Shown here piece after piece: positions 757-19,391 of a DNA stretch of 24,000 bases. This DNA is from Vibrio panuliri (GTDB lineage: Bacteria > Pseudomonadota > Gammaproteobacteria > Enterobacterales > Vibrionaceae). A program made the position numbers and the translations under genes. The stretch's first letter is position 1; each line of letters starts with the position of its first letter. Below the pieces are notes generated by a model. The model was not told the DNA's origin, ran no database searches, and saw nothing but the letters and a program-made list of their open reading frames with translations. Where the stretch lies: assembly GCF_009938205.1 (NCBI RefSeq), contig NZ_AP019654.1, positions 2,236,540-2,260,539 of the forward strand, in the 5' to 3' direction.

Positions 757-1341
757 CTAACTTAACTTCTTTTGCAGCCATACTTGGGCAAACTTTAAAT
801 CATTATCGACGGTACGCTTAGATACCCCCTTCAACTCAGCAATGTCCGTAATGGATGCGGTAGAAAAATGTTTTAGCTCAAACACTTCAAACTGTCGCGG
901 GTATCGGGCGCGCATTTCTTCCAAGGCGATGTAGAGATCGCGATTTAACTCGTGCTGGCTGGTGAACTCAGCGGGAATCGCCTCTTCCAGTTGGTCAAGC
1001 AGTTGTTCAGATGAGCTGAGCATCACTAAATTATGGTGCGCTTTACCAAACAATAAATGCCACACAGAAACCCGCACATATTCAAAAAAATCGCGACGAC
1101 TTTCCATTGGCACTTCATCATGTCGCCAACGGTGAAGCTTGACGATGGATTCATTCGCGAGCTCCGTTACGGAGCTTTCACGCAGCAGGGTGTCTGTTGG
1201 GCGCTGAGTTTGCATTAAGTTTGCAATGACCGCTTTAATATCATCATAAACATGATGAAATAGCTCTTGGCTTGCATCTTTGTCTCGGCTTTGCCACCCC
1301 ATCAACAGCTTTGTAGCGTGCTCGATGTCATATAGTGACAC
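757..1341 (-). CDS. ECF-type RNA polymerase sigma factor of the Ser/Thr-kinase-linked family (Sigma70_ECF-like)
   Basis: The tracked ORF is 757..1518. The C-terminus has a region 4.2 HTH (SITDIAELKGVSKRTVDNDLKFAQVWLQKKL). The N-terminal core ATKLLMGWQSRDKDASQELFHHVYDDIKAVI matches the typical start of this ECF family. I prefer the GTG at 1341, preceded by GGAGA 5 nt upstream. The residues upstream of it (CCCFLCSSSS...) look non-coding. The start is uncertain (1302, 1341 or 1518). Confidence 0.8.
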   Translation of the reverse strand: MSLYDIEHATKLLMGWQSRDKDASQELFHHVYDDIKAVIANLMQTQRPTDTLLRESSVTELANESIVKLHRWRHDEVPMESRRDFFEYVRVSVWHLLFGKAHHNLVMLSSSEQLLDQLEEAIPAEFTSQHELNRDLYIALEEMRARYPRQFEVFELKHFSTASITDIAELKGVSKRTVDNDLKFAQVWLQKKLS

Positions 1342-1584
1342 AATATTCTCCAAGGTTTCATACAAAGAAGCTATGCTACTCGACGAGCATAAAAAGCAAC
1401 AACAGCGATGTTGTGTTTTGTTAACTATTTCCGTAATTAAACCGAACCACAACAGATTGTCAGCTTGCCAATCATTGTTCATGCAATCGAGGGACGTTTT
1501 TCTCCTCATTTCGCGCACTTTGTTTCAACTTATCATTGGCGCGAGTATCCCACTCAACTGGTCGTTCACATTGAGGGAAGAGAG

Positions 1585-4971: not shown

Positions 4972-5988
4972 TTACGCCATTTCTTGTGCAGTTATGCAGG
5001 CTTTATAAGTCACACAATTTCGGTTATTACTCTTCGATTCATACAGAGCTTCGTCTGCTGCCTCAGCCAAATAACGGCGAGAAAGATCCCGATTAGGATA
5101 GATGGAGCTCACTCCTAAGCTCGCTGTTACGATGGATCTTCCCGATTCATCATTGTGAGGGATTTGCAGTTCAGCGATCACGTTTCTCACTTTTTCCGCA
5201 ACCAACTCAGCCCCCGACTGTTCGGTATCTGGTAACACAATCGCGAACTCTTCCCCACCTACTCGCGCCACTCTATCGAGTTCTCGTAGTTGCATGGTTT
5301 GTAGCGCTTTCGCGACAGTTCTTAAACAATCATCGCCAAGATGGTGACCAAAGGTGTCGTTATAAAGTTTGAAATGGTCAATATCGAGCATGATCAGCGA
5401 CAATGCCGTTCCAGCACGTGACGCTCGCTCCCACTCTTCAGCAAAGATTTGTTCAAAACGACGACGGTTGTACAAGCCAGTTAAGCTGTCTGTGGTTGAA
5501 AGCATCAACAGCTGCTCGTTGGTTTCTTCTAGTTGCTGCTGCAGTTCCTCAAGCTCTGCCAACTTTTGGTCAAACTCAATGGTCTTACGGCGCAAGGCTT
5601 CTCGCTGCTCATACAACTCAATAAACACCCTTACTTTGCCTCTAAACACCACAGGTTCAAGCGGCTTGAACATGTAATCGACTGCACCAGACTCATAACC
5701 ACGAAAAACTTGGGTTTCGTTCTTTGAACGTGCGGTAACGAAAATTATCGGAATAGTTTTGGTTTTCTTATTGCCGCGCAGCAACTCCGCGACCTCATAA
5801 CCATCCATTCCCGGCATTTGCACATCGAGTAGCACTAAAGCAAATTGATGATCCAGCGTATGTGCTAACGCTTCCTCACCGCAGCTTGCGCGCACAATAT
5901 CGACATCAAAAGACTCCAATAACACTTCTAGCGCAATCAGGTTTTCAGGACGGTCATCCACGATTAAAACACTCGGACGTTGCGTCAT
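4972..5988 (-). CDS. Response regulator-diguanylate cyclase (REC, coiled coil, GGDEF; PleD/WspR-like)
   Basis: The receiver has LIVDD...LLDVQMPGMDGY...FVTA. The GGDEF domain has DSLTGLYNRR, an active site GGEEF and an intact I-site RELD five residues upstream of GGEEF. The start overlaps the cheB stop by 4 nt. Confidence 0.9.
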   Translation of the reverse strand: MTQRPSVLIVDDRPENLIALEVLLESFDVDIVRASCGEEALAHTLDHQFALVLLDVQMPGMDGYEVAELLRGNKKTKTIPIIFVTARSKNETQVFRGYESGAVDYMFKPLEPVVFRGKVRVFIELYEQREALRRKTIEFDQKLAELEELQQQLEETNEQLLMLSTTDSLTGLYNRRRFEQIFAEEWERASRAGTALSLIMLDIDHFKLYNDTFGHHLGDDCLRTVAKALQTMQLRELDRVARVGGEEFAIVLPDTEQSGAELVAEKVRNVIAELQIPHNDESGRSIVTASLGVSSIYPNRDLSRRYLAEAADEALYESKSNNRNCVTYKACITAQEMA

Positions 5989-6596
5989 TTTTCACACTCA
6001 CATAGGCTGTTTAAAAAATCACCCATTTGCTCAATAGGAACAATATGGTCCACCTCCACAGCTTCAATAGCTGCTTGTGGCATAGCTTGCGCTTCAGCAC
6101 TTTCGATTGACTGAACCACTGCAATGCCTCCTTTTTGTTTGATTCGGGCGAGTCCTTGCGCACCATCCGAGTTTGCCCCAGTCAACACCACCCCGATTAA
6201 GTGTTGACCATAATACTGAGCTGCAGTCTCAAACAACACATCGATAGAAGGACGCGAATAGTTCACTGGAGGGTCAATAGACAAGGCAATTGATCCATCA
6301 ACTTCCACCATCATGTGATAGTTAGGTGGCGCGATATACAACGTGCCACGGCGTATCGGTTCTTTATCCTCCCCTTCCTTAACCGTAAGTTGAGAACGAT
6401 ATTCGAAGTGGGTCGCCAAATAACTTTCTACATTTGGGCTGATATGTTGCACCAACAGGATTGGTAGACAGAAGCTTGATTTTAGCTCCCGCAATACCTT
6501 TTCCATTGCCGCTAAACCACCCGCTGATGCACCAATCACAACAGCATGATATTGCTCATTACCACAGTTGATTGCCACACGACCTCCGCTACACAT
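5985..6596 (-). CDS. cheB: CheB-type glutamate methylesterase/glutamine deamidase, catalytic domain only (no receiver)
   Basis: 203 aa. Catalytic-triad contexts are present: VIGASAGG (Ser), LLVQHISP (His), LTGANSDGAQG (Asp). There is no N-terminal REC domain. It overlaps cheR by 8 nt and the GGDEF gene by 4 nt. Confidence 0.85.
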   Translation of the reverse strand: MCSGGRVAINCGNEQYHAVVIGASAGGLAAMEKVLRELKSSFCLPILLVQHISPNVESYLATHFEYRSQLTVKEGEDKEPIRRGTLYIAPPNYHMMVEVDGSIALSIDPPVNYSRPSIDVLFETAAQYYGQHLIGVVLTGANSDGAQGLARIKQKGGIAVVQSIESAEAQAMPQAAIEAVEVDHIVPIEQMGDFLNSLCECEK

Positions 6597-7437
6597 TCAA
6601 CGCTGAGCGCTTCTTGCGATAAATCTTCTCTCGTTCAGAGACCAACTCAAACTTATCGGCGACATCGGCGAAGCGCAGGCTCTCTTTGGAACCCAAACAT
6701 AAAAAACCACCTGGGACTAAGCTGTCGTAGAAAAGCTGAAACACCTTGTTTTGCAACTCTCGATTAAAGTAAATCAAAACGTTACGACAGAAGATAACAT
6801 TCATTTCGCCAAAAACACCGTCTGTGGCTAAGTTGTGCGGCGTAAACAGTACTCGCTCGCGTAAACGGCTCTGCATAATGACGTGGTCATAATCAGCAGT
6901 GTAATAGTCAGAGAAAGAGTTAATCCCCCCGGCCGCCTGATAGTTTGTGGTGTACTGACGCACCAGATCCATCGGGTAGATCCCTTTTTGCGCCTTCTCT
7001 AAAATGGCTTCATTAAAGTCCGTTGCATACAACTGTGCCCGCGAGGTCATGCCTTCTTCTTCAAGCAAGATCCCCATAGAGTAGACTTCTTGACCAGCAG
7101 AACACCCTGCATGCCAAATCTTGACGAATGGATAGGTGTGTAGATGCGGCAAAACGATCTCACGCACTTTCTTATAGAACCAAGGATCACGAAACATCTC
7201 AGTAACGTTAATCGAGAGATCCAGCAAAATCTGTTCGAAAAAGCGTGGGTCGTAAATCACCTTATGTTGCATTTGCGAATAGTTCGTCATGCCCTCTAAT
7301 GCGCGTCGATACTCTAAGCGACGGCGAGTATGCGCCACAGAGTACTCACGAAAATCGTAGCCGTACTTGCGATAAATCGCTTCTAGAAACAGTTGGATTT
7401 CCAATTGCTCGTCGTCAATGTCAATCACATCACTCAT
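6589..7437 (-). CDS. cheR: CheR-type protein-glutamate O-methyltransferase
   Basis: 282 aa. The N-terminal helical domain carries TEMFRDP. The SAM-binding fold carries IWHAGCSAGQEVYS, ATDFN and IFCRNVLIYF. The start lies 1 nt downstream of the kinase stop. Confidence 0.9.
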   Translation of the reverse strand: MSDVIDIDDEQLEIQLFLEAIYRKYGYDFREYSVAHTRRRLEYRRALEGMTNYSQMQHKVIYDPRFFEQILLDLSINVTEMFRDPWFYKKVREIVLPHLHTYPFVKIWHAGCSAGQEVYSMGILLEEEGMTSRAQLYATDFNEAILEKAQKGIYPMDLVRQYTTNYQAAGGINSFSDYYTADYDHVIMQSRLRERVLFTPHNLATDGVFGEMNVIFCRNVLIYFNRELQNKVFQLFYDSLVPGGFLCLGSKESLRFADVADKFELVSEREKIYRKKRSALNV

Positions 7438-7438
7438 A

Positions 7439-10400
7439 TCAGTACAACCACACTCTCATCATTGAAATTAGCTTGCTGGTGTCAATTGGCTTAGCCAAGT
7501 AATCACTGGCGCCTGCTTCGATGCATTTACTGCGATCTCCTTTCATGGCTTTGGCAGTTAAGGCAATAATTGGCAGTGACGCATGTTTTTTCTGTTGGCG
7601 AATAGCCTGCATCGCCTCATAACCATCCATTTTCGGCATCATGATGTCCATCAGCACCAAGTCAATATCTGGGTTGTCTTTCAGTTTATCGAGACTCTCC
7701 AATCCATCTCGGGCAATCGTGACATTCATGCCCTTATCTTCTAAGACATTGGATAGCGCGAACACATTGCGCATATCGTCATCAACCAACAAGATGTGCT
7801 TGTCTTTAAGCAAGGTTTCTTTGTCATGTACTGCTTTCAGCATGCCACGCTGCTCTGCCGGTAATGCCGATTCTACTCGATGCAGAAACAGGGCTGATTC
7901 ATCAAGCAACCGCTCTGGCGACTTCACCCCTTTGATGATGATGCTTTCTGCGTACTGGTTAAGCTCTTTTTCTTCCTCACGCGTTAATTCACGACCGGTA
8001 TAGACAATAATTGGCACTCTCGCTGCGGTTTCACTGCGGCGAATGTTCTCCAGAAGATCAAAGCCCGTCATATCTTCTAGGCCTAAATCTAAAATCATGC
8101 AGTCATAGTTATGCAGTTCGAGCTCATCCAACGCGTCTTTGCCCGTTGATACCGCGACAATATGCACATCATCTTCACCAATCAGTTGGCGGATGCTGTC
8201 GCGCTGAACTTCATCGTCTTCAACGATAAGCAAGCGTTTGACCGGTTTGGAAATGATGTTTTCAATGCTAGCAAATGCCATATCGAGTTTTTTCATATCC
8301 ACGGGTTTGGTTAGATAACCAATCGCCCCCATCCGCATCGCATCTAAATTGGCGTCATTGGCCGACATAAAGTGCACTGGAATATGACGCACCGCAGGAT
8401 TGTCTTTTAGACGTTCCATAACCGTCCAGCCATCAATACCCGGTAGACCAATGTCGAGGATAATCGCACTAGGCTTATAGTACTCAGCAAAGTGGAGACC
8501 AATTTCGCCCGTCTCAGCCACGATGCACTTAAACCCGCGTTCACGCCCAAAATCACGCATTACGCCGGCAAACGCGCGATCATCTTCAATGATCAGTAAG
8601 GTCTTATCTTCAGCGGCTATCGTTTGACGGTCATCTTCAATAAAGTTCTCGTTCTTGACCGCCATCGGTAATGGTGGCTCGACAGCTTGTGCTTCAAGCT
8701 GGTCTTGCTTAACGGCGGACATCCGCTGAGAAGGGAGTGGTGGTACTGCCGATGACTCATCTTGCTGAGGCACAATGTTGATGATCGGTTTCAGCGACAC
8801 CTCTCCAGTTGCATTCGCGCGCTCCTTACCTGAGTACTCAAGCGGCAAGACAATGGTAAAGGCACTGCCTTTACGCTCTTCACTCTTGAGCAAAATCATA
8901 CCGCCCAGTAGGTGGGTAAGCTCTTTGGAAATCGAAAGCCCCAAGCCAGTGCCGCCATACTTACGACTGGTGCTACCATCGGCTTGTTGGAATGCTTGGA
9001 AAATCGCAAGCTGCTGTTCTTCTTTGATGCCAATACCATCATCTTTAACGCGGAATGCCACCAAAGACTCTCTTGGTCTTTGCATCCGCTCTGCGGTTTC
9101 TGGCGAAGGCAGCGCAACGCTTAGTGATACCGACCCTTCGTGAGTAAACTTGAAGGCGTTGGTTAATAAGTTACGTAAGATTTGCTGTAGGCGCTGGGAG
9201 TCGGTTTCGATACTTGCCGGCAAGTTGCCCGCGATCGACACCGAGAAATCTAGCCCTTTATCCGCGGCGATATCTTTGTATAGACGATTAATATCTTGCT
9301 CAATGGTTGCAAACGGTACGTCTTCGATATGGAGATCAACCTTACCCGCCTCTACTTTGGACAAGTCCAAAATTTCATTAATAAGCGATAGCAAATCAGA
9401 TCCTGACGAGTTAATCGCTTTGGCTGACTCTATCTGTTTATCGTTGAGGTTGCCGTCTTTATTATTGGCAAACAGTTGCGACAAAATCAGGATACTGTTG
9501 AGCGGTGTACGCAACTCGTGCGACATATTGGCAAGAAACTCAGACTTGTACTTACTTGCAATCTCAAGCTCTTTCGCTTTTTCTTCAACGATTTGCTGAG
9601 CGCGATTCAACTCGCTGTTTTTCTCTTGCATCTCAAGCTTTTGGTCTTCAAGTGCTTTAGTACGCTCTTCAAGCTCTTCATTGGTGACACGCAACTCTTC
9701 TTGCTGAGCTTGCAGTTCAGCTTCGGACTCTTTAAGCACTTTCGTCTGCTCTTCAAGTTCCTCATTAGTGACACGCAACTCCTCTTGTTGAGTTTGCAGC
9801 GCACTTTCCGACTCACGCAACGCCGCGGCTTGCTCTTCAAGGTCTTTATTTGCTTGGGTCAGATTTTTTTGATCTTGTTGTGACTGTTCAAGCAACGCAC
9901 TGATCGTCTCGCGTGCGTTCGCCGCGTCAAAAATCACCGCAGCATTGGTGCAGGCTTCATTCACGTAGCGTTTTTGCAGTTTGCTAAACGGGGTTAAAGA
10001 ACCAAGCAGCACGACACCGATGAGATGAGAATCTGTCACCAATGGAATCGACATAAAGTTCGCTGGCGTTACTTCACCTGCACCATAGTTTAACGTTGGC
10101 GCGTCATGGGTGATGTCACTATAAGCGATAACCTCTTGCTCAACGGCCGCTTGGCCGACCATGCCCTCGCCTAACTCGACCAGATTGAAATTACCGCTGC
10201 GGTCACTAAAAGCGTAACTTGAGGTTAAAGCGAGAGTTTTGCTCTCTTGATCATACAAGTACAAAGCGCCCAACTCGGCACTCATATGCTTAGTGAAAAA
10301 GGTAACGAAACGCTTAGCAAGCTCAGCCAAGGTGAGATCACCACGCAACTGGTCATCTAAGCTCTCCTTGCCGACTTTGAGCCAATCAAGATCGCGTAAC

Positions 10401-11548
10401 TGAACCGCCATATCATTCAAAGCGCCAGAGAGTTGACCCAACTCATCGTTGCGTTCCAGTTTTAATGTCGAGTTGAGCTTGCCAGAAGCGATATCATTGG
10501 CAAACGCCATGCCTTGCTCCAAAGGATCGGTGACCGATTTAGCAAACTTAACTGCAACCAGACCCACCACGGCAATCAGTACTAATGCCGCCACCACTAA
10601 GCTGATATAGAGAAAATAAACAGGCTGAGTCACCTCGTATTGATCAATCTTGGAGATCATGTACCAGTTGTGACCTGGAACAGGGATCTTACTGTAAGCA
10701 ATCAAGACGTTTTTTCCTGCGCTATCGAAATAAACGTCATGCCCGCCTTTGTCTCCTGCTGCTTTCGCATCTCCCCAATATGGCGGCTCTGTGGGGAGAC
10801 GATAACCAACGACATACTGACCATTACCCATGGTAGTCACGTCACTGCGCAATTCAAACTGCCCCGTTAGTCGATTGCTGCCAATCAAATAAGACTCACC
10901 AGTTTTGCCTAGCCCAACCCGAGAGTCCAAAATATGGTTGATCAGTTCTGGTAAGATTTTTACTGCCACAATTGCATGCATTTGGTTTTGCTGATCAAAC
11001 ATTGGAGCAGCAAGATAGGAGACTTGCTTTTGCTCATGTTCGCTAAAACTAAAATCCGAAAACGCGGGCTTGCCAGTCCGCTCAACTTCCGACCAAACTC
11101 GGCTCAATGCCAAGTCAAGACTATTGTTGGAAGCCAGTCGCGTACCGAGACGTTGCTTGTCTTGATAGGAATAGAGAATTTCGCCGCGGTCTGGGCTGAG
11201 GATCAATAAGTCGCTGTAACGATAGCTTTGAACAAACTTGCCCACCAGTTGGTTGTACTCTTCATCGACCATTAGTGATTGCTTGTTTGACAAAATCTGA
11301 GAAAGATTTTTCACTTGCTCACTTTGGGCAAAAACTTCAACATCAAGAGTACGATCAAGAAAAAACTCTTCGATTTCATTGCTACGCAGCAATTGAATCG
11401 CGAGCAATTCTTCAAAGGATTTTTCAATCAAAGCATCTGAAGCGATTTTTCCGTTGAACATCGTCGCAGCTAATAGTGGTATTACGCCAAAAAACACCAA
11501 TATCGCGACAAGTTTGGTTCGGATTTTTATGTCTGAGAACTTGGGCAT
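7439..11548 (-). CDS. Hybrid sensor histidine kinase: TM, Cache-like periplasmic domain, TM, HAMP, GAF, coiled coil, HisKA, HATPase, REC, REC, REC
   Basis: The tracked ORF is 7439..11626. I prefer the ATG at 11548 (MPKFSDIKIRTKLVAILVFFGVIPLL gives a first TM segment straight away). H-box FLANMSHELRTPLNSI. G-boxes DDGIGI and GGTGLGLSISK. HAMP ends ...DELGQLSGALNDMAVQL. Three receivers: LIIEDD..ILDIGLPGIDGW, LIVEDD..ILDLGLEDMTGF, LLVDDD..LMDIMMPKMDGY..ALTAKA. Confidence 0.9.
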   Translation of the reverse strand: MPKFSDIKIRTKLVAILVFFGVIPLLAATMFNGKIASDALIEKSFEELLAIQLLRSNEIEEFFLDRTLDVEVFAQSEQVKNLSQILSNKQSLMVDEEYNQLVGKFVQSYRYSDLLILSPDRGEILYSYQDKQRLGTRLASNNSLDLALSRVWSEVERTGKPAFSDFSFSEHEQKQVSYLAAPMFDQQNQMHAIVAVKILPELINHILDSRVGLGKTGESYLIGSNRLTGQFELRSDVTTMGNGQYVVGYRLPTEPPYWGDAKAAGDKGGHDVYFDSAGKNVLIAYSKIPVPGHNWYMISKIDQYEVTQPVYFLYISLVVAALVLIAVVGLVAVKFAKSVTDPLEQGMAFANDIASGKLNSTLKLERNDELGQLSGALNDMAVQLRDLDWLKVGKESLDDQLRGDLTLAELAKRFVTFFTKHMSAELGALYLYDQESKTLALTSSYAFSDRSGNFNLVELGEGMVGQAAVEQEVIAYSDITHDAPTLNYGAGEVTPANFMSIPLVTDSHLIGVVLLGSLTPFSKLQKRYVNEACTNAAVIFDAANARETISALLEQSQQDQKNLTQANKDLEEQAAALRESESALQTQQEELRVTNEELEEQTKVLKESEAELQAQQEELRVTNEELEERTKALEDQKLEMQEKNSELNRAQQIVEEKAKELEIASKYKSEFLANMSHELRTPLNSILILSQLFANNKDGNLNDKQIESAKAINSSGSDLLSLINEILDLSKVEAGKVDLHIEDVPFATIEQDINRLYKDIAADKGLDFSVSIAGNLPASIETDSQRLQQILRNLLTNAFKFTHEGSVSLSVALPSPETAERMQRPRESLVAFRVKDDGIGIKEEQQLAIFQAFQQADGSTSRKYGGTGLGLSISKELTHLLGGMILLKSEERKGSAFTIVLPLEYSGKERANATGEVSLKPIINIVPQQDESSAVPPLPSQRMSAVKQDQLEAQAVEPPLPMAVKNENFIEDDRQTIAAEDKTLLIIEDDRAFAGVMRDFGRERGFKCIVAETGEIGLHFAEYYKPSAIILDIGLPGIDGWTVMERLKDNPAVRHIPVHFMSANDANLDAMRMGAIGYLTKPVDMKKLDMAFASIENIISKPVKRLLIVEDDEVQRDSIRQLIGEDDVHIVAVSTGKDALDELELHNYDCMILDLGLEDMTGFDLLENIRRSETAARVPIIVYTGRELTREEEKELNQYAESIIIKGVKSPERLLDESALFLHRVESALPAEQRGMLKAVHDKETLLKDKHILLVDDDMRNVFALSNVLEDKGMNVTIARDGLESLDKLKDNPDIDLVLMDIMMPKMDGYEAMQAIRQQKKHASLPIIALTAKAMKGDRSKCIEAGASDYLAKPIDTSKLISMMRVWLY
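9647..9814 (-). repeat. In-frame tandem duplication (2 x 84 bp, 2 x 28 aa) inside the kinase coiled coil
   Basis: Unit 1 (9814-9731): ESESALQTQQEELRVTNEELEEQTKVLK. Unit 2 (9730-9647): ESEAELQAQQEELRVTNEELEERTKALE. My manual nucleotide alignment gives 67 of 84 matches. Confidence 0.85.
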
Positions 11549-11929
11549 AGTCAAATAAGTTGGTTTTATTAACAATAATCTCAAATTCTTGCAAAGCAAA
11601 ACTGCAATCTCAATTACGAAACACACTCATTTTGATGTACGTCATACGAGTCACGATTAAATTGCGGCGCCAAACAAGATTTAAGGTTTGAAACGCGATA
11701 GTGACCACATTCCAACACACTGCAACTGCGAATTAAGCAAAGTAATATTTCACCAGAGAGAGTGTGCCCTCGATTTTCCACACCAAACCGCTATTTCTCC
11801 TATTGAAGCCCCTCGTTTAAACCATTGTGCGACGTGGGTTTGCGCCAATCTATTATTAAGTCGCACAGCTCTCATCTTTGCCGCTGCCATATTGATAGAA
11901 TTGAATAAATTTTAAAGATTTATCCTCAC

Positions 11930-13693
11930 ATGAGCTTAAATAAACAGCACTTTGATATTGTGACAGCACTGACCATGCAAGGGACCAGTATCAATGCCCT
12001 TGCCTCTGTTTTTAATATGACCTCGCGTAACCTTCGCTACGCGATAGAGAACATTAATTTCTATCTCGAAAAACTGGCGATGACACCGATAGAACTGACT
12101 AACGGTGAACTGCATTATCCCTATGATGCCAGCCAGTTTTTTAGTGATGTCGTTGCCAACAATTTTATCTATTCAAAACATGAACGTGAGGAATACATTG
12201 CTGTCATTGCGTTATTTTCTCCGCAAACCCTACTTAGCGATATACAACAATATTTACGTGTCAGCCGCCCAACGCTGAATAAGGATTTACGTAACATCAA
12301 TGAGATGTTCAATAACTTGGCGATTAAGCTGGAAGTTATCGAACAACAACTGCACGTCTCAGGCAAAGAGAAGCAAATCCGCTATCTACAGATGTGTTAT
12401 GCCTCCAAGTACCTATTTTGCAAAAATGAGCAGGTTCACTATCTTCAGAAACGCTATTTCTACGAGCGAGATGTTGTGGCGATCGTGCAGGGATATTTGG
12501 AGAAATATCGGCCATATTCAGCATTTTCGGCGGTGAGTCGAATTGAGCAGAATGCGAACTGCGTTCTTAGTGACGAGTTTAGAAATCTATTTACCATCTA
12601 CCTGATGGTCACATTGAGTCGCATTGAACAGGGCGTGTTAATTAACCGCAAAAATAACGGTATGTTTTTGCAGTCAACGAAAGCGTTTGGATACATTAAG
12701 CAGGCGCTTGGTTGGCAACAAGAGAGCCATCACTATGAAGCCTTGCATCTTGCGGAATACTTCCTCGGCGGTATCAATACCGATGGTTTTTACGAAAAGC
12801 GTTTTCAAGCTGAAAGTTTTATTTTCCAGCTACTCAGTGAAGTTAGCCATGACTGCGGTAAAGACTTGCTGTGTGATACAACATTACTCAACGATATCGT
12901 CAACTATCTCACCACCGCGGTCTATCGGGCGAAGAACAATCTCAACACTCAAATTGGCGCACAAAGTGCCTACTCAAAAGCCTTATTTGAACAGATAAAA
13001 GCGGTCGCTGAGCAGTATCGTCATCATTTAGTTGAACCGCTACGCAATGAAGAAATTGGCTACATTACACGGTTAGTAAATCGAACTATCGAGGTACGTA
13101 ATCAGCAGTCTGTATCACTCAAACAGTTGTTAGCCATTGCGAAGAATCATTGTCGCGAACTCAACAGTGAAGGCTTTGTCAGCCAGTTAGTGGAGCAATT
13201 GGGCGATCAAGTGATTGATGACCGAACCTTACCCGGCCTCGACGACCTACTTATTACACTTAAAGATACTTCTCAGCTAATAACCGAGACCGACTTAGTG
13301 GCCGTTTTATCTTGGCTCAGCGGTGAAATGGAGAGGTTGGGACTGGTCAATCATGAGTATAGCGGTGGAATCGTTAGCCTTTACTATGCTCGAAATCACG
13401 CTTATTTTGCTCAACATGGCTTATTGGTTTGTCACGGAAAAAGTGCCAGTCACTGCCAAGGGATTGCGATTGTGCATCTACCGTTACCAAAACCAATTAC
13501 CGATATATTCCAGCGTAATATTCGTCAAGTGATGCTGATCAGCCATATGGATAATGTCCAACATGTTCGAGCTGTGCACCAACTTCATCAAAAGCTCACC
13601 GAGCAAGGGCCATTCGCCCTAGCTACGGATAGAGAAATGCCACTTAGCAATAGGAGTACAAGTGCGCTGTCTGCCTTTCATCCAGTTGAGTAA
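11930..13693 (+). CDS. PTS-controlled transcriptional regulator, FrvR/LicR/MtlR-like (two winged HTH, PRD-like region, C-terminal EIIA(Fru/Mtl)-like domain)
   Basis: 587 aa. The N-terminus has two HTH units (TSINALASVFNMTSRNLRYAIENINFYL and LLSDIQQYLRVSRPTLNKDLRNINEMF). The helical middle is PRD-like (IYLMVTLSRIEQG, HYEALHLAEYFLGG). The C-terminus has LLVCHGKSASHCQGIAIVHLP, resembling the EIIA-2 His region. E. coli FrvR has a similar size and layout as I recall. PRD assignment by eye is the weakest part of this call. Confidence 0.7.
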   Translation: MSLNKQHFDIVTALTMQGTSINALASVFNMTSRNLRYAIENINFYLEKLAMTPIELTNGELHYPYDASQFFSDVVANNFIYSKHEREEYIAVIALFSPQTLLSDIQQYLRVSRPTLNKDLRNINEMFNNLAIKLEVIEQQLHVSGKEKQIRYLQMCYASKYLFCKNEQVHYLQKRYFYERDVVAIVQGYLEKYRPYSAFSAVSRIEQNANCVLSDEFRNLFTIYLMVTLSRIEQGVLINRKNNGMFLQSTKAFGYIKQALGWQQESHHYEALHLAEYFLGGINTDGFYEKRFQAESFIFQLLSEVSHDCGKDLLCDTTLLNDIVNYLTTAVYRAKNNLNTQIGAQSAYSKALFEQIKAVAEQYRHHLVEPLRNEEIGYITRLVNRTIEVRNQQSVSLKQLLAIAKNHCRELNSEGFVSQLVEQLGDQVIDDRTLPGLDDLLITLKDTSQLITETDLVAVLSWLSGEMERLGLVNHEYSGGIVSLYYARNHAYFAQHGLLVCHGKSASHCQGIAIVHLPLPKPITDIFQRNIRQVMLISHMDNVQHVRAVHQLHQKLTEQGPFALATDREMPLSNRSTSALSAFHPVE

Positions 13694-14693
13694 CAACGTG
13701 ACTTAGCAACTTAACGCAACTGATCGCATCATTGGGATTAACTTGGGTGTAAGCTGAGTGACAGTTGCGGACAGGCAGAATAATGGCAAGCCCCGCGATA
13801 CCGCTACCCACCAAGGTGGCTGGCCCATTGTCTGTACCGCCCCCAGCAAGAAAATCTCGTTGTACGCCGATACCAAATTCATTGGCGACATCACTGACAT
13901 AATTCAATAGCGAATAATGACCTAACGCCATCTTATCCGCGACAACCAAGCAAGGCCCTTGACCAAATAACCGCTGCGCTCCCGATTTTACTTCAAGGTG
14001 CTTTGCGGTCGCGACATCAAGCACAATGACAATATCCGGATTGAGTTGTTCGATGGCGGTTTTACCGCCTTTGGTGCCTACTTCTTCTTGCACGGTCGCC
14101 ACAAAATAGAGATCACAAGCGAGTGACTGTTTATCGAGTGAACGTAGTAGTTCAACCCCTACCCAACACCCAATGCGATCATCCATCGCTTTACCGATCA
14201 TCACACCACTGTTATTTAATTCAAAATGGCGAGTCGCAAACACGGCACTGTCGCCAATTTGAATCCCCATAGTGATGACTTCTTCGCGACTACACGCACC
14301 AACATCAAGCCATAAATCATCAATGCTCAACTCAGCCAATGGTTTATCTGTCCAAATCAGACCAGTAAACTTATTGCCACAACGCGTTTTAACTTCAATC
14401 TCACTATTTACTGCCACTTTAGGGTCAATTCCCCCCAACTTGAACAGTTTAAGCAGACCATCATTACGAATTTCTCTGATCAGGAAGCCAACTTCATCCA
14501 TATGTGCAACCACTGCAACTTTGGGACCAGTGGCATGACGATTAAAGCGTGCAATCAAGCTACCGAGCCCATCAAAGCTAATGTCATCAACAATGGGGTT
14601 AAGCACTCCACTTAATATTTGGCGAACCTCATCTTCGCGACCTGATGGGCCATGGGCATTGTTCAACTCGACCAACAAACTAAAGTCTTTCAT
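13644..14693 (-). CDS. M42 family metallo-aminopeptidase (FrvX/YpdE/SgcX-like; often mislabelled endoglucanase)
   Basis: 349 aa. Metal-ligand contexts are present: VVAHMDEVGF, KAMDDRIG, TVQEEVG, VIVLDV, VRNCHS. It starts 5 nt after the M24 gene stop. Confidence 0.85.
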   Translation of the reverse strand: MKDFSLLVELNNAHGPSGREDEVRQILSGVLNPIVDDISFDGLGSLIARFNRHATGPKVAVVAHMDEVGFLIREIRNDGLLKLFKLGGIDPKVAVNSEIEVKTRCGNKFTGLIWTDKPLAELSIDDLWLDVGACSREEVITMGIQIGDSAVFATRHFELNNSGVMIGKAMDDRIGCWVGVELLRSLDKQSLACDLYFVATVQEEVGTKGGKTAIEQLNPDIVIVLDVATAKHLEVKSGAQRLFGQGPCLVVADKMALGHYSLLNYVSDVANEFGIGVQRDFLAGGGTDNGPATLVGSGIAGLAIILPVRNCHSAYTQVNPNDAISCVKLLSHVVTQLDERQTAHLYSYC

Positions 14694-14698
14694 TATTG

Positions 14699-15787
14699 TT
14701 ACTCCTGACGGTTCTTGACCATATCTGCTACTTCAAAAATATTGCGTAGCTGTCTCGGTAATTTGGTGAGGCTCTCACAGCCACTTGGCGTAATGACTAA
14801 GGTATCCTCCACTCGCGCCCCGCCTAATCCACTTAGGTAAACGCCAGGTTCAACCGTCACCACCATACCCACTTCCAACGTCGCCAAACTGTCGGGGGTC
14901 AGCAGTGGATACTCATGCCCTTGCAACCCAACACCATGCCCCAAGCCATGGCAAAATGCTTCGCCATAGCCCAATGAGCCGAGATACTCTCTCACAGTGT
15001 GATCCACGCGATTTGCCGCAATACCTGGCGCAAGCATCTCAACACCCAGTTTTTGTGCGCAGTAAACGGCGTCAAACAGCTGTTGCAACTGCGGTGCGAC
15101 TTCACCGGTACAGAACGTTCTGGTGACATCCGAATGATAGCCTTGGTACACCACACCAAAATCTATGGTAACCAGTTCATTACGCCCAATAATTCGCTCA
15201 GAGGGTCGTCCGTGAGGCAATGCACCTCGCTCCCCCGAGACCACAATTAAAAAATCGATACTTTCTGCACCAAGCATACGAGCGTAGAACTCAAGGTGCG
15301 CAGCTAGCTCACGCTCACTCATCCCAAACCGGAAATGAGCGAGCCCTTGCTCAATAGCCGCTTCAGTGATTTCACAGGCCTTGCGAATCAAGGCGATTTC
15401 CGGTGCTGATTTCCAGCGTCGTGATGGGGTGACAACATGGTCTGTTGCCACCAATTGTTGTGATAATGCCTGCGTAAGCTGCATTACTTGCTGATAACTT
15501 AGCGCATGAGCTTCGAAACCGAGTCGCTCAATCGAATGGACATCCAAACGTTGTTGCAGAACATTCAACCAGCCATCTTGATCAGTACAGAATCTCTGGC
15601 ATTGGGGACTTTGCTCGGCAACTTGCTGCCAATATTTTCCCGCCACCAGCAACTCACTGCCCGAGGGCGTCAGCAATAGATACCCTCCACTGCCCGTGAA
15701 GCCACTTAAATAGCGCTTGTGGTGCGTATCACTAACCAGTAAAGCATCAAACTCTTGCTGATAAGGCGCTAGGCTAAATGTCTGCAT
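14699..15787 (-). CDS. M24B Xaa-Pro aminopeptidase/dipeptidase (YpdF/PepQ-like)
   Basis: The tracked ORF 14699..15799 begins at a GTG. An ATG at 15787 has GGAA 7 nt upstream. Pita-bread fold ligand contexts: IDFGVVYQGYHSDVTRT, HGLGHGVGL, VTVEPGVY, GARVEDT. Confidence 0.85.
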   Translation of the reverse strand: MQTFSLAPYQQEFDALLVSDTHHKRYLSGFTGSGGYLLLTPSGSELLVAGKYWQQVAEQSPQCQRFCTDQDGWLNVLQQRLDVHSIERLGFEAHALSYQQVMQLTQALSQQLVATDHVVTPSRRWKSAPEIALIRKACEITEAAIEQGLAHFRFGMSERELAAHLEFYARMLGAESIDFLIVVSGERGALPHGRPSERIIGRNELVTIDFGVVYQGYHSDVTRTFCTGEVAPQLQQLFDAVYCAQKLGVEMLAPGIAANRVDHTVREYLGSLGYGEAFCHGLGHGVGLQGHEYPLLTPDSLATLEVGMVVTVEPGVYLSGLGGARVEDTLVITPSGCESLTKLPRQLRNIFEVADMVKNRQE

Positions 15788-15833
15788 ATTGATTTCCACT
15801 CAATTGATACTCTTCGTTACTCTGCGCTTGGCG

Positions 15834-17177
15834 TTAGAAGTCCAGCCCGAGCTCATCCAGCAGCTCATCATCTTTCTTACTGAACACCGATTTCTTCTCT
15901 TGCTCAGCTTTTAGCGCGGCCTCTCTTGCCATCTCTTGTCTATCCATAATTCTGAAGAATGGGTAGTAGACGAAGAATGAAGCGACAATTTGCAGTGCTT
16001 GAACGAATGGTGTTTTCCAGTCAAAGCTTGTTAAGTAACCTTCAAAGAACAAAGGCAGATACGGGGGATCAAAGAACGGTTTGGCTAAGAAACCATATTT
16101 CATCAGTACCAGTGGGAATATACCGATTAGCGAGCCACCCAATACAAACGGAATAAACAGAATCGGGTTTAAGATAATAGGCGCACCAAACAATACTGGC
16201 TCATTAATGCCAAACAAACTTGGCACTAGAGATACTTGACCAACTTTACGATAACGTTGAGTTTTGGCAATCATCATCGCAATAACTAAGCCTAAGGTAA
16301 CCCCTGACCCAGTGAAGTTAACAAATGCTGAGAATGTACCGCCAGTAACGAAGTGAGCAAGCTCTACCCCAGCCGTTTTCGCAGCGATGTTCTCCGATAG
16401 ATATTGGACAAAAATCGGCGATAGAATTGGGCTAAGCACGGCCGAGTGGATACCAAAGAACCAGAACAACAGACGCAACATAATGACAAACCAGACCACC
16501 CACAGATTGTCTAAGCTGCCAACCACAGGCGCCAGTACCTGCATTAAGATCTCTGGTAGCAGCAAGCCACCGGTCCATTGAGCAATAAAGTAACGGGCAG
16601 AAACAAACAGAACGGCGATAAAAGCAGTCGGAGTGATTAATTCGAATGAGCTTGAAACGAAATCAGGCACACCTTCTGGCATTCTGATCACCAGCCTCTT
16701 TTCGGTAAAGAATCGATAGATCTCAACACTGGCAATCGCGACAAATATGGCGGTAAATAAGCCTTTTGAATCAAAGAAGCGAATATCAAGTGAGCCATCA
16801 GGATTCACTGAGGTGGTCATGATCAAATAAGCAAAAAGGGATAGGGCCACCGCACCAACTGTGTATATTTTGTAGCCTTCACTTAGAAAATAAGCGATTG
16901 CTATCACAGTGTAAATGGCGATAAAACCGAGTGAAAATTTAATTAAAAGATCGATAAGATAAGTGTTATTAATAAACCACTCTTGCACCGCAGCCGAATC
17001 AGAAAATACGTTTTTAAGTGCTTTTAATGGATAAGCCATCGAGCCGAGCAATAGGATTGGCGTTAATACAACCATGCCTTTTTTCACAGCACTAAGATGG
17101 ACTTGCTTATCTATTTTTTCTGCTATTGGCAGTAATATACTGCTGAGCAGCTTTTCAAAAGATGCGAATAGGCTCAT
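15834..17177 (-). CDS. PTS EIIC permease, lactose/cellobiose (Lac/Chb) family
   Basis: The tracked ORF is 15834..17192. I prefer the ATG at 17177, which has AAGG 8 nt upstream. It is polytopic and carries family motifs (FWFFGIHS, SLFGINEPVLFGAPIILNP). Confidence 0.9.
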   Translation of the reverse strand: MSLFASFEKLLSSILLPIAEKIDKQVHLSAVKKGMVVLTPILLLGSMAYPLKALKNVFSDSAAVQEWFINNTYLIDLLIKFSLGFIAIYTVIAIAYFLSEGYKIYTVGAVALSLFAYLIMTTSVNPDGSLDIRFFDSKGLFTAIFVAIASVEIYRFFTEKRLVIRMPEGVPDFVSSSFELITPTAFIAVLFVSARYFIAQWTGGLLLPEILMQVLAPVVGSLDNLWVVWFVIMLRLLFWFFGIHSAVLSPILSPIFVQYLSENIAAKTAGVELAHFVTGGTFSAFVNFTGSGVTLGLVIAMMIAKTQRYRKVGQVSLVPSLFGINEPVLFGAPIILNPILFIPFVLGGSLIGIFPLVLMKYGFLAKPFFDPPYLPLFFEGYLTSFDWKTPFVQALQIVASFFVYYPFFRIMDRQEMAREAALKAEQEKKSVFSKKDDELLDELGLDF

Positions 17178-17208
17178 ATACGTAACCTTCATTCATTATT
17201 ATAGGTAA

Positions 17209-17230
17209 CACCTGCGTGTTTTCGCAGGTG
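17209..17230 (-). other. Intercistronic stem-loop between the EIIB and EIIC genes
   Basis: CACCTGCG-tgtttt-CGCAGGTG is an 8-bp perfect stem in the 72-nt gap. There is no convincing U-tract on the transcribed strand. Confidence 0.3.
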
Positions 17231-17249
17231 GTAGGGAGTGAGGTATCTC

Positions 17250-17591
17250 TTAGTCAGTAAGACTCATCTGGTGCTTTTTGTGTGCTAACAACGCTTGTTT
17301 TAGCACTGTTGCTCCATCCATCGCGCCGTAAATCTCTGCTGAAAGCAGCACAGATGGTTTATTATTTTCTAGTGCTGATGCTTCGATGTTTTTGTATTTA
17401 TGACTAAGTTGAGGCCCTACCAAAATAACATCAAAGCTATTAATTTTTTCTGATAGACGGTCAACAGAAATAGCTTCAAGAGTAAAGTCTTCAATATTTA
17501 GCTTTTGGCTACCATTGATGGTTTTCTTCATCTCTTCCATCATCATCGTGGTTGAAAAACCACCCGCACACACCAATAAAATATTCATCAT
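17250..17591 (-). CDS. PTS EIIB, lactose/cellobiose family
   Basis: 113 aa. The N-terminal active-site cysteine context NILLVCAGGFSTT matches the ChbB-type CxxGxST loop. AAGGG Shine-Dalgarno 5 nt upstream. Confidence 0.9.
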   Translation of the reverse strand: MMNILLVCAGGFSTTMMMEEMKKTINGSQKLNIEDFTLEAISVDRLSEKINSFDVILVGPQLSHKYKNIEASALENNKPSVLLSAEIYGAMDGATVLKQALLAHKKHQMSLTD

Positions 17592-17654
17592 ACAACCCTT
17601 TGTGGTTTACATTTGAGTACAGGTTAATTAATAAATATTTGCTTACATTCGTCA

Positions 17655-17695
17655 ACGAAACTTGATTTCACTAATATTGTGAAATCAAGTTTCGT
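17655..17695. promoter_or_regulatory. Perfect 17-bp-arm palindrome in the divergent EIIB / EIIA promoter region (candidate operator or activator site)
   Basis: ACGAAACTTGATTTCAC-taatatt-GTGAAATCAAGTTTCGT. The arms are 17655-17671 and 17679-17695 with no mismatch. A TATAAC hexamer lies at 17703-17708. On the + strand the repeat is followed by CGCTTTTT. Confidence 0.6.
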
Positions 17696-17733
17696 CGCTT
17701 TTTATAACGCTTTTGTTAATGTGAAAGCGTCCA

Positions 17734-18111
17734 ATGAACACCAAGGAATATCCCGTGAGCAATTCCCAAGAAATGAATGAAGATTTTGAGAAAGTCATAA
17801 TATCGATTGTCAGTTATTCTGGCGAAGCTAAGGGCTACGCTTATGAGGCTTTAACACTCTCTGAAGAGGGTAAGTTTGATGAAGCTGAAGATATGATGGA
17901 GCAATGTAACGTTAGTGTTCGTAAAGCACATGCTGTGCAAACTGAATTGATTCGCCAAGAGATCAGTGGTGAAAAAATCGTGGTAAGTATGATTATGGTG
18001 CACGCTCAAGACCATCTTATGACGACCCTATCTGAGCGCGAACTGATCCGTAAAATGATCGAGCAAAACCGCCGCCTCTACAAATTAGAACAAGCATTGC
18101 TGAACAAATAA
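17734..18111 (+). CDS. PTS EIIA, lactose/cellobiose family
   Basis: 125 aa. Three-helix-bundle type with the phospho-His motif MIMVHAQDHLMTT (compare ChbA VHAQDHLMT). Confidence 0.9.
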   Translation: MNTKEYPVSNSQEMNEDFEKVIISIVSYSGEAKGYAYEALTLSEEGKFDEAEDMMEQCNVSVRKAHAVQTELIRQEISGEKIVVSMIMVHAQDHLMTTLSERELIRKMIEQNRRLYKLEQALLNK

Positions 18112-18149
18112 TCTCTCCCCCCGAGACTTATTGCTCCTGCAGTGATGCT

Positions 18150-18183
18150 GACGCGATGGCTCCGTCATCGCGTCTTTCTCTTT
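18150..18183 (+). terminator. Rho-independent terminator/attenuator between EIIA and the malY-like gene
   Basis: GACGCGATG-gctccgt-CATCGCGTC is a 9-bp GC-rich perfect stem followed directly by TTTCTCTTT. It begins 39 nt after the EIIA stop and ends 24 nt before the next ATG. Confidence 0.6.
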
Positions 18184-18206
18184 GATCTTGTTCAGGTATC
18201 CATGCC

Positions 18207-19391
18207 ATGCAATTTGACTTTTCCACACCGACCCAACGATTAAATAGCTACTCAACTCAATGGGATTATGTTGGCGATCGTTTTGGCTGTTCTGACCTAC
18301 TGCCTTTTACCATCTCTGACATGGATTTTGCTGCTGCGCCTTGTATCATCAAAGCCCTTCAACATCGCCTAGATCATGGCATCTTTGGCTATAGTCGCTG
18401 GAATCACTCTGATTTTAAACAAGCTATCTGTCACTGGTTCGAAAGCCAGTACCAAGCTCAAATTGATCAAGACAGCTTGGTCTATGGTCCTTCTGTCATC
18501 TACATCATCGCAAAATTGATCCAATTATGGTCAAAACCAAATGACAGTGTGCTGTTTTTTGACCCAGCATATGACGCTTTCAGACCTTTGATAGAAACCA
18601 GTCAGCGCAGAGCCGTCCCTTGCCCATTAACATGTCAAAGGGACGAGCAATCATCGAGCTATCAGGTTGATTGGCATAAATTGGATCAGCAAGCTTCTGA
18701 TCCTCGTTGTACCATTTTGCTGCTCTGCAACCCACACAACCCCACAGGTAAAGTCTGGAACCATCAAGAACTCAGCAAAATTGCCCACATTGCGCAGCGC
18801 CACAACCTTAAAGTCATTAGCGACGATATCCATATGGATATCTGTTTCGCCCCCTATACTCCGTGGAGTAAGGTGGCTCAAAACGATCAATGGGCGCTGG
18901 TCAGTTCAGCATCAAAGTCATTTAATATCCCTGCCCTAACTGGTGCGTACGCTGCTATCGCTTGTGAAGAAACCAAGCAAGCGTATCTAAATGTTGTTAA
19001 ACAAACGGAGGGTTTATCTTCGCCAGCCATTCTCGGTGTGATTGCCACAATGGCGGCTTATCGCGAAGGAGCTACATGGTTACATGCCCTCAAAGAGTAT
19101 CTGCATGGCAACTTACTTTGGGTAACAGAGCGACTCAATCAGGAGTTTCCACAACTTAATTTGCATCCACCACAAGGGACTTACCTAGCGTGGCTTGACC
19201 TCTCTGCGCTCAATATTGATATGGATAAACTGCAACACGCCCTCATCCATGAGCAAAAAATCGCGATTATGCGGGGAGATGCTTACGGCCCTTTGGGTGA
19301 AAATCATCTACGTTTTAATGTCGGATGCCAAAGAGATAAGGTAGAGAAAGGAATTGAAGGCTTGATTAACGCGATTCACTCATTGCGTTAG
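18207..19391 (+). CDS. malY: PLP-dependent C-S lyase (cystathionine beta-lyase type), MalY/PatB family
   Basis: 394 aa. Extended similarity to E. coli MalY as I recall it: FDFS...TQWDYVGDRFG.SDLLPFTISDMDFAAAPCII.AL, YGPSVIY, NPHNPTGKVW, VISDDIHMD, PLP-lysine context SSASKSFNIPALTGAY, YLAWLDLSALNID, GLINAI. Confidence 0.9.
   Translation: MQFDFSTPTQRLNSYSTQWDYVGDRFGCSDLLPFTISDMDFAAAPCIIKALQHRLDHGIFGYSRWNHSDFKQAICHWFESQYQAQIDQDSLVYGPSVIYIIAKLIQLWSKPNDSVLFFDPAYDAFRPLIETSQRRAVPCPLTCQRDEQSSSYQVDWHKLDQQASDPRCTILLLCNPHNPTGKVWNHQELSKIAHIAQRHNLKVISDDIHMDICFAPYTPWSKVAQNDQWALVSSASKSFNIPALTGAYAAIACEETKQAYLNVVKQTEGLSSPAILGVIATMAAYREGATWLHALKEYLHGNLLWVTERLNQEFPQLNLHPPQGTYLAWLDLSALNIDMDKLQHALIHEQKIAIMRGDAYGPLGENHLRFNVGCQRDKVEKGIEGLINAIHSLR

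Follow-up and report, generated by a model that had tools for sequence, protein, structure and literature searches.

A Lac/Chb-family phosphotransferase cassette with two metallopeptidases and a predicted MalY-type lyase in Vibrio panuliri and in bacteria of four phyla

The cryptic Escherichia coli operons fry, frvABXR and sgc each join a permease of the phosphotransferase system (PTS) to an M42 peptidase (YpdE, FrvX and SgcX, respectively), and fry also encodes the M24B peptidase YpdF, as an initial annotation of the locus described here had accurately stated. That locus lies in a 24,000-nucleotide stretch of the Vibrio panuliri genome (contig NZ_AP019654.1, positions 2,236,540 to 2,260,539; hereafter the window), in which a Lac/Chb-family PTS permease is encoded together with an M42 aminopeptidase, an M24B Xaa-Pro peptidase, a predicted MalY-type lyase dependent on pyridoxal 5'-phosphate (PLP) and a regulator. 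Two old puzzles are joined in this cassette: why PTS 'sugar' operons encode M42 proteins, and what the MalY-type lyases of PTS operons act on. Among the E. coli systems, fry (fryB-fryC-ypdF-ypdE-fryA) has in one operon the same gene order as the window, from enzyme IIB (EIIB) through EIIC and M24B to M42, and YpdE and YpdF are 36% and 37% identical to the window M42 and M24 proteins. However, fry has neither a lyase nor a regulator with a PTS regulation domain (PRD); in addition, it encodes a fused EI/HPr/EIIA protein, FryA. Its permease also belongs to a different family, as had been proposed, with no BLAST match of FryC or FryB to the cassette EIIC or EIIB, and the window M42 and M24 proteins score below the YpdE and YpdF equivalog cut-offs (305.8 versus 412 bits and 239.6 versus 393 bits). 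The frvABXR and sgc operons likewise encode their PTS permease beside the M42 protein, but these permeases are of other PTS families and the operons have no M24 and no lyase; sgc adds an epimerase and SgcQ.

On the lyase side, the malXY operons of E. coli, Vibrio vulnificus and Photobacterium place a MalY-type C-S lyase in a PTS operon, as the cassette does, and malY also lies in a PTS operon in Clostridioides difficile (CD3027-CD3030; PMC6143707). In these systems, however, the lyase is partnered by a Glc-family EIICB and a LacI-type repressor, and peptidases are absent. The canonical MalY genes of V. vulnificus and Photobacterium kishitanii sit in malI-malX-malY; the V. vulnificus set (locus L095, 539-8386) has as its neighbours a GH2 beta-mannosidase-like gene and one for a type I phosphomannose isomerase, which hints that 'MalX' of this species may handle a mannoside rather than maltose. 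A cluster with both peptidases and lyase has been drawn for Lactobacillus sakei LT-13 (LACBS_00568-00576; Kato and Oikawa 2018), comprising PRD proteins, an aminopeptidase, Lac/Cel EIIA, EIIB and EIIC, an aminopeptidase and MalY (PMC5845896). In that work the lyase alone was studied and the function of the cluster was left open: the enzyme was a weak, broad racemase (about 9 nmol/min/mg on Ala, Km about 150-170 mM) and an L-Cys beta-lyase (Km 11.5 mM) with no activity on L-Ser, its Km values on free amino acids spanning 11.5-169 mM (PMC5845896). A literature search on the function of the cassette or on the substrates of fry, frv and sgc returned only this paper and papers mentioning C. difficile malY. 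The cassette is a variant of the known PTS-M42 theme that has been drawn in passing in the literature and never analysed.

The open reading frame (ORF) listing and Pfam and NCBIfam profile searches placed all seven genes of the V. panuliri locus in the families, positions and orientations given in the initial annotation. Four of them form a compact unit on the minus strand: EIIB of Lac/Chb type (17250-17591; PTS_IIB, PF02302, 3.5e-11), EIIC of the Lac/Chb family (15834-17192; PTS_EIIC, 4e-44), the YpdF/prolidase-like M24B Xaa-Pro peptidase (14699-15799; Peptidase_M24, 8.8e-62, and Creatinase_N, 5.4e-16) and the TET/YpdE-like M42 metallo-aminopeptidase of 349 amino acids (13644-14693; Peptidase_M42, 6.3e-75). 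The gaps of 72, 46 and 5 nucleotides proposed between EIIB and EIIC, EIIC and M24, and M24 and M42 hold exactly with starts at 17177 for EIIC and 15787 for M24; these are the likely starts, each having a ribosome-binding site and giving lengths that agree with sister species. Running divergently from this unit on the plus strand are EIIA of Lac/Chb type (17734-18111; PTS_IIA, PF02255, 4.2e-31), whose likely start is a GTG at 17755 on the basis of an AAGGAA ribosome-binding site and of sister species, and the 394-residue lyase (18207-19391; Aminotran_1_2, 3.2e-52). The lyase is 100% identical to a protein of V. panuliri, so that the window belongs to this species or to one very near it. The 587-residue regulator (11930-13693, plus strand; Pfam Mga, 9.1e-10, and PRD, 1.1e-9) converges on the M42 gene, and the 3' coding ends of the two overlap by 50 nucleotides (13644-13693). 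The same 50-nucleotide overlap occurs in Vibrio marinisediminis (L001), and antisense interference between the two transcripts is possible. Profile searches found no glycosidase, deacetylase, kinase or isomerase encoded within the window, in line with what had been reported from the sequence.

The initial annotation had let its reading stand or fall with whether the peptidase and lyase genes stay with the PTS genes and whether related loci usually carry a phospho-glycosidase, and had looked to the Vibrionaceae for the comparison. We ran this comparison more widely. With an alignment of 13 EIIC homologues (48-94% identity) as query, we scanned one genome per GTDB species, found 212 stretches with an EIIC relative and took the best 80 with 10 kb flanks, chosen by EIIC alone; neighbours were then counted by tblastn mapping and by de novo clustering of all flanking ORFs. 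M42 was found beside EIIC in all 80 loci, EIIB in 79, EIIA in 76, M24 and a PRD-type regulator in 74 each, and a MalY/PatB-type lyase in 73, with several of the missing components falling at contig ends. The peptidases and lyase thus stay with the PTS in 73-80 of the 80 loci, with no phospho-glycosidase in the unit, and the genes are kept together in four phyla. The proposal of a co-conserved set therefore comes through this comparison by a wide margin. Precomputed Pfam neighbourhoods of six homologues gave the same picture of the gene set. The next commonest neighbour family was present in 13 of the 80 loci and was lineage-specific, and the ten commonest extra families, which include a GntR regulator, an ABC ATPase, parts of a Man-PTS, a Na/Pi transporter, TruA, an SDR protein, a glutamate decarboxylase and a LysR regulator, are unrelated to sugar cleavage. 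No glycosidase of family GH1 or GH4 was found as a cassette member among the 80 loci. The single GH4 gene met in these loci, in Brevinema (L026), was considered as a stand-in for the lyase and set aside: it directly follows a separate Glc-family EIICB gene, and an ORF on the opposite strand separates it from the cassette.

The hosts are Vibrio and Photobacterium in the Pseudomonadota, Cetobacterium in the Fusobacteriota, Brevinema in the Spirochaetota, and a range of Bacillota that includes Enterococcus, Listeria grayi, Carnobacterium, Vagococcus, Clostridium (C. perfringens and C. tertium among them), a C. difficile strain, Romboutsia, Lacticaseibacillus zeae, Streptococcus cuniculi and Granulicatella. 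Across loci, pairwise identity in EIIC goes together with that in the enzymes, the correlation being r = 0.83 for M42, 0.78 for M24 and 0.84 for the lyase. In Firmicutes the cassette genes abut or overlap; in Enterococcus raffinosus, M24 overlaps M42 and M42 overlaps the lyase gene, and RefSeq labels the three generically, as 'Xaa-Pro peptidase family protein', 'M42 family peptidase' and 'aminotransferase class I/II-fold...'. We read the cassette as a widespread, horizontally spread catabolic unit of which the Vibrio locus is one version.

Two gene orders recur. In type A the regulator is followed by EIIA, EIIB, EIIC, M24, M42 and the lyase, and in type B by M42, EIIA, EIIB, EIIC, M24 and the lyase; the L. 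sakei LT-13 cluster has the type B order, as judged from its published annotation rather than from sequences, plus an extra gene of the RDD family. The two types are anciently diverged and differ in every component, with identities of about 46% for EIIC, 33% for M42, 35% for M24 and 26% for the lyase, and the type B M42 protein passes the YpdE equivalog model (525.9 bits, cut-off 412). Nine Enterococcus genomes have both types, each with its own enzymes; E. raffinosus (L037, L056) and E. avium (L038, L068) are two such cases. Two full enzyme sets within a genome speak for enzymes dedicated to their respective transporters rather than for housekeeping peptidases. A type A-like copy (EIIC about 58% identical to that of the window) is on a megaplasmid of about 1 Mb in E. 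raffinosus and E. gilvus. Plasmid carriage was seen solely on Enterococcus megaplasmids of about 1 Mb, which are non-mobilizable and generically annotated.

Variants without M24 occur in Sarcina and Clostridium, where the order is regulator, EIIA, EIIB, EIIC, lyase and M42. In these loci, a gene for an M17 leucyl aminopeptidase lies about 0.2-0.8 kb downstream of M42 (L024, 14513-15982; L025, 14587-16047; L027, 4555-6036), the M17 assignment being confirmed by Pfam in the case of L025 alone. This enzyme may stand in, as a non-orthologous substitute, for the missing peptidase. In the cassette of a Vagococcus metagenome-assembled genome (L029), which has no lyase, a gene for a RidA (L-PSP) enamine/imine deaminase (6837-7235) lies just upstream of the regulator.

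The gene census bears on a conventional explanation, in which the PTS imports an ordinary beta-glycoside or disaccharide that is cut by an unlinked phospho-glycosidase, and the peptidases and lyase are merely co-regulated with it, for regulatory reasons or to couple nitrogen or sulfur supply to sugar. We consider this explanation unlikely. It has to contend with a full set of genes co-inherited over four phyla and overlapping one another, with two complete paralogous sets in one genome and with a linked glycosidase in 0 of 80 loci. Its appeal lies partly in the loss of the lyase or of M24 from some lineages, and partly in the regulatory role of E. coli MalY, which binds MalT independently of catalysis (cited in PMC5845896).

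The permease itself gives evidence in both directions. We assign it, from profile matches and alignments, to the PTS Lac/Chb family (TC 4.A.3) with separate EIIA and EIIB proteins: EIIC matches the lactose/cellobiose-family (lacE subfamily) model TIGR00410 at 282.6 bits (cut-off 236). None of EIIC, EIIB and EIIA reaches a cellobiose, chitobiose or lactose equivalog cut-off (for example, TIGR00359, 282.6 versus 434; PRK10297, 135 versus 760), and that EIIC lies under every such cut-off speaks against import of an ordinary glycoside. On the other side, the ChbC-type His/Glu pair is kept: H249 and E331 of EIIC align with H250 and E334 of the Bacillus cereus ChbC structure 3QNQ, which sit by the C6 hydroxyl of the sugar. 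E. coli ChbC, which is 29% identical to the window EIIC, has this pair in common with it. The chb/cel operons resemble the cassette in their three-component EIIA/EIIB/EIIC permease of one family, but they encode a phospho-glycosidase of family GH4 or GH1, sometimes with a deacetylase as well, where the cassette has two peptidases and a lyase.

We next examined the functional residues in alignments of about 75-88 members of each protein family, applying a threshold of at least 97% conservation. At or above this level were the phosphorylatable Cys8 of EIIB (84 members) and His90 of EIIA, and E331 of EIIC. The same held for the TET-type metal and catalytic set of M42 (H64, D66, D171, E203, E204, D226 and H312; 83 members), for the five metal ligands of M24 (D213, D224, H288, E317 and E331; 76 members) and, in the lyase, for the PLP lysine K237, Y122, N178, D206 and the carboxylate-binding R369. 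Catalytic and phosphorylation residues are thus, as read from these alignments, intact in the transporter and in all three enzymes, and this strict conservation of the enzymes weighs against an ordinary glycoside as the substrate. The best matches to solved structures were 1VHE and 1YLO for M42, and 3Q6D (1.6e-71) and YpdF (5CNX, 1.2e-66) for M24. The lyase matched the E. coli MalY structure 1D2F (9.7e-138; 52.5% identity to E. coli MalY) and Staphylococcus hominis PatB (6QP3, 2.5e-74), and passed the PatB C-S lyase model TIGR04350 marginally (341.8 bits, cut-off 340). It belongs to the MalY/PatB C-S lyase family and its activity is predicted from that membership.

Selection on the enzymes was assessed from nonsynonymous divergence (dN) alone, since synonymous divergence (dS) was saturated in all available Vibrio pairs. 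Between V. panuliri and V. fluminensis, dN was 0.13-0.16 for the enzymes, 0.011 for EIIC and 0.02-0.06 for flanking genes. The enzymes are therefore under purifying selection, with dN far below the saturated dS, yet they are far less constrained than the transporter, whose dN is lower still. At the protein level, the same pair (V. fluminensis, L017) is 99% identical in EIIC, 96% in EIIB, 78% in M24, 81% in M42, 81% in the lyase and 80% in the regulator, with flanking genes at 88-98%. Uneven divergence recurs across phyla, EIIC being 71% and the enzymes 40-46% identical to those of Cetobacterium.

What might such a cassette do? On these comparisons we give about even weight to the view that its substrate is a conjugate, a sugar-amino acid or sugar-peptide, that is processed by the linked enzymes. 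Also in its favour are the repeated linkage of MalY genes to a PTS, the weak action of the L. sakei lyase on free amino acids and the lyase of separate origin that adjoins EIIA in Vibrio. A more specific route, the simplest that gives every part a role, can be offered tentatively. The Mga/PRD regulator would bind a palindrome beside the EIIB promoter and activate the operon when the PTS substrate is present. The Lac/Chb EIIABC would import and phosphorylate a glycoside with an amino acid or short peptide as aglycone. M42 would then strip N-terminal residues and M24B would cut the Xaa-Pro bonds that block M42, which would leave a phospho-glycosyl amino acid. A broad aminopeptidase and an Xaa-Pro peptidase are the classical pair for complete N-terminal digestion of a peptide, and MalY/PatB enzymes require as substrate a free alpha-amino acid whose beta-carbon bears a leaving group. 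By alpha,beta-elimination from O- or S-glycosyl Ser, Thr or Cys, the PLP lyase would yield sugar phosphate, pyruvate or 2-oxobutyrate, and ammonia; because this elimination would itself free the sugar phosphate, no glycosidase would be needed. In short, the cassette may encode an undescribed way of using glycopeptides, a version to which we give about half the weight of the general view: the PTS would import peptides with O- or S-glycosylated Ser, Thr or Cys, such as might come from host mucin or O-GlcNAc proteins, the aminopeptidases would strip them and the MalY-type lyase would take the place of a glycosidase. The M17 gene downstream of M42 in the M24-less variants lends weak support to peptide trimming.

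Parts of this scheme have parallels. In the thioalcohol pathway of Staphylococcus hominis, a peptide transporter, a dipeptidase and the C-S lyase PatB reportedly act in turn, so that a peptidase step is followed by a lyase that frees the group conjugated to Cys; uptake there is said to be proton-coupled and not by a PTS, the pathway has no sugar substrate and its genes do not form one cassette. Elimination by a PLP enzyme has also reportedly been found with a Man-family PTS, the enzyme being of a different PLP family, with no peptidases and with a sugar acid rather than a conjugate as substrate. That system gives a precedent for a PLP elimination enzyme that takes the PTS product itself as substrate (PMC9529869). 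Should the cassette import a glycosylated amino acid or peptide, the PTS would extend beyond plain carbohydrates, with a glycosidase-independent release of sugar. The glycopeptide route, if true, would also explain the cryptic E. coli fry, frv and sgc operons with their PTS and M42, and would give MalY and malXY a missing physiological class of substrate. Among the hosts are gut bacteria that are tractable and of medical or ecological relevance (Enterococcus, C. perfringens, strains of C. difficile, Listeria grayi and lactobacilli), and the Vibrio, Cetobacterium and Brevinema hosts come from fish guts. The question is directly testable, because the cassette is present in tractable hosts and L. 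sakei strains exist with it (LT-13) and without it (LK-145).

Several observations weigh against a conjugate substrate handled by the linked enzymes. The census covers the best 80 of the 212 EIIC relatives, and a phospho-glycosidase may be encoded elsewhere in the genome. Brevinema keeps only EIIB, EIIC and M42, and V. marinisediminis, Photobacterium and the Vagococcus metagenome-assembled genome have no adjacent lyase, so that neither the lyase nor M24 is required in cis. The established reaction of MalY/PatB enzymes is C-S cleavage, and the MalY of L. sakei is inactive on L-Ser. The enzymes diverge much faster than the transporter (99% identity for EIIC and 78-81% for the enzymes in the V. 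fluminensis comparison), which also fits co-regulated enzymes beside an ordinary glycoside permease. Finally, a terminator-like hairpin, described below, splits EIIA from the lyase in Vibrio, and this too counts in favour of the ordinary-glycoside explanation.

The minimal Brevinema unit can be read differently, as a sign that the key step is that of M42. M42 and M24 would then be amidohydrolases acting on a phosphorylated amino-sugar derivative, for instance an N-aminoacyl or N-peptidyl amino sugar, and directly freeing the sugar phosphate, and the lyase would dispose of the amino acid set free, which could be Cys or a Cys conjugate. Here, too, a glycosidase would be unnecessary; the M24 family includes non-peptidase hydrolases, with weak NCBIfam matches of the cassette protein to ectoine hydrolase and DddP, and the lyase of the L. 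sakei cassette cleaves L-Cys. However, the nearest characterised relatives, YpdE and YpdF, are named aminopeptidases, the closest structures are those of aminopeptidases and prolidases, and both the combination of a broad-range aminopeptidase and an Xaa-Pro enzyme and the M17 aminopeptidase of the M24-less variants point to digestion of peptides from the N terminus. We regard the amidohydrolase explanation as improbable.

The divergent control region between EIIA and EIIB (17627-17695) lies in a spacer of 142 nucleotides and contains a perfect palindrome with 17-bp arms, ACGAAACTTGATTTCAC-N7-GTGAAATCAAGTTTCGT (17655-17695). Beside it on the minus strand, ahead of EIIB, are TTGACG (17655-17650), a 17-nucleotide spacer and a -10-like ATTAAT (17632-17627). 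In nine Vibrionaceae loci, the palindrome arms, TTGACG and TTAAT are invariant or symmetrically changed, and the 7-nucleotide centre is variable; Cetobacterium has a related site, AAAGTTTATTTC-N10-GAAATAAACTTT, and no further copy of the palindrome was found in the 24 kb window. This conserved palindrome is likely to be the operator of the regulator, adjoining a putative EIIB promoter. We also considered whether it could act as RNA, as a leader terminator or an element like a ribonucleic antiterminator (RAT) site. This is disfavoured, although covariation alone cannot decide the matter: a DNA operator is preferred because the regulator has a helix-turn-helix (HTH) and not a co-antiterminator (CAT) domain, and because the site abuts the -35-like hexamer.

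A second conserved element (18128-18184, plus strand), picked up in a terminator scan, occupies the spacer between EIIA and the lyase. It consists of an invariant TTGCTCCTGCAGT, an 11-bp GC-rich hairpin (18150-18174) and a T-run, and it is kept in six Vibrio species (loci L012 and L014-L017 among them) with compensatory changes in the stem and a fold z-score of -3.9. The spacer is unlike those between malX and malY. An Rfam search of the window and of both conserved hairpin regions returned nothing significant. The hairpin looks like a terminator or attenuator, which makes co-transcription of EIIA and the lyase uncertain, and lyase expression may be partly separate from that of EIIA.

The regulator had been described as FrvR-like and as an HTH/PRD/EIIA-type protein. 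Its general architecture, an HTH/Mga region followed by a PRD, agrees with this, with Mga placed by Pfam at residues 86-157 and the PRD at 300-383. The rest of the description holds less well: one PRD was seen and a second was not detected, and no EIIA_2 domain was matched by Pfam, this domain emerging solely in profile-profile alignment. E. coli FrvR has no BLAST match to the window regulator, the sole match of FrvR being a weak one to an E. gallinarum regulator (1e-5 over 170 amino acids). In hhalign, the window regulator aligned with the HTH_11-PRD-EIIA_2 cassette regulators of Firmicutes with a probability of 98.7% over 501 columns; its C terminus aligns with their EIIB-like and EIIA_2 region, in which the Cys column expected of an EIIB-like domain is not conserved and 'CHGK' stands opposite 'PHP'. 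Along its whole length it shares 32% identity with the regulator of the Cetobacterium cassette, and hhalign makes the Vibrionaceae and Cetobacterium regulators a divergent branch of the Firmicute ones. From these alignments, the protein appears to be a divergent member of the MtlR/LicR-like PTS-controlled activators.

Cetobacterium is also nearest to the Vibrionaceae cassette as a whole, with identities of 71% for EIIC, 69% for EIIB, 57% for EIIA, 46% for M42, 43% for M24 and 32% for the regulator, and both share the layout in which EIIA diverges from EIIB-EIIC-M24-M42. A contig binned as Sarcina (L020) shows, next to L021 and L003, the layout of the Cetobacterium type and an identical operator sequence, which may reflect an error in metagenome binning or a recent transfer. 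The Vibrio lyase has a different affinity: it is 55-62% identical to the MalY proteins of Vibrio, Photobacterium and Aeromonas, against only 40-46% for the lyases of type A cassettes and 24% for one of type B, and in a neighbour-joining tree the cassette-linked Vibrio lyases fall inside the gammaproteobacterial MalY clade, to which the type A lyases are sister. Because the lyase nests in this clade and is not of donor type, a resident-type MalY has replaced the donor lyase in Vibrio, which amounts to an independent assembly of the trio of PTS, peptidases and lyase. Insertion of the cassette into a malI-malX-malY locus was considered and rejected: no remnants of malX, malI or phosphomannose isomerase were found near any Vibrio cassette, and the EIIA-lyase spacer does not resemble those of malX-malY.

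The patchy occurrence of the cassette in Vibrionaceae, with eight species representatives in the GTDB scan and variable flanks, raises the question of whether the Vibrio locus is a cryptic or decaying remnant of horizontal acquisition, without current function and with the lyase adjacent by accident. The high dN of the enzymes and the GC content of the PTS genes (0.38-0.43, against 0.46 for the window) could be taken in this sense, although as a sign of transfer the GC content is merely a modest dip. We think a remnant highly improbable. All seven ORFs are intact with their catalytic residues conserved, dN is far under the saturated dS, and the operator-like palindrome and promoter-like elements are kept in nine loci. 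Moreover, the cassette-linked lyase adjoins EIIA in six Vibrio species despite different outer flanks, with no malX or malI remnants nearby.

Outside the cassette, a 293-residue ORF without a Pfam match (1465-2346) adjoins and partly overlaps a gene for an extracytoplasmic function (ECF) sigma factor (757-1518, minus strand). Between the regulator and an Hsp70-like gene, the window also contains a block (4972-11626) with genes for a response regulator-GGDEF protein, for CheB and CheR and for a hybrid histidine kinase of 1395 amino acids. This block is absent from the otherwise syntenic loci of V. fluminensis (L017) and V. renipiscarius (L014), in which the regulator is directly followed by the Hsp70-like and glutathione S-transferase (GST) genes, and it is an insertion/deletion difference between close species.

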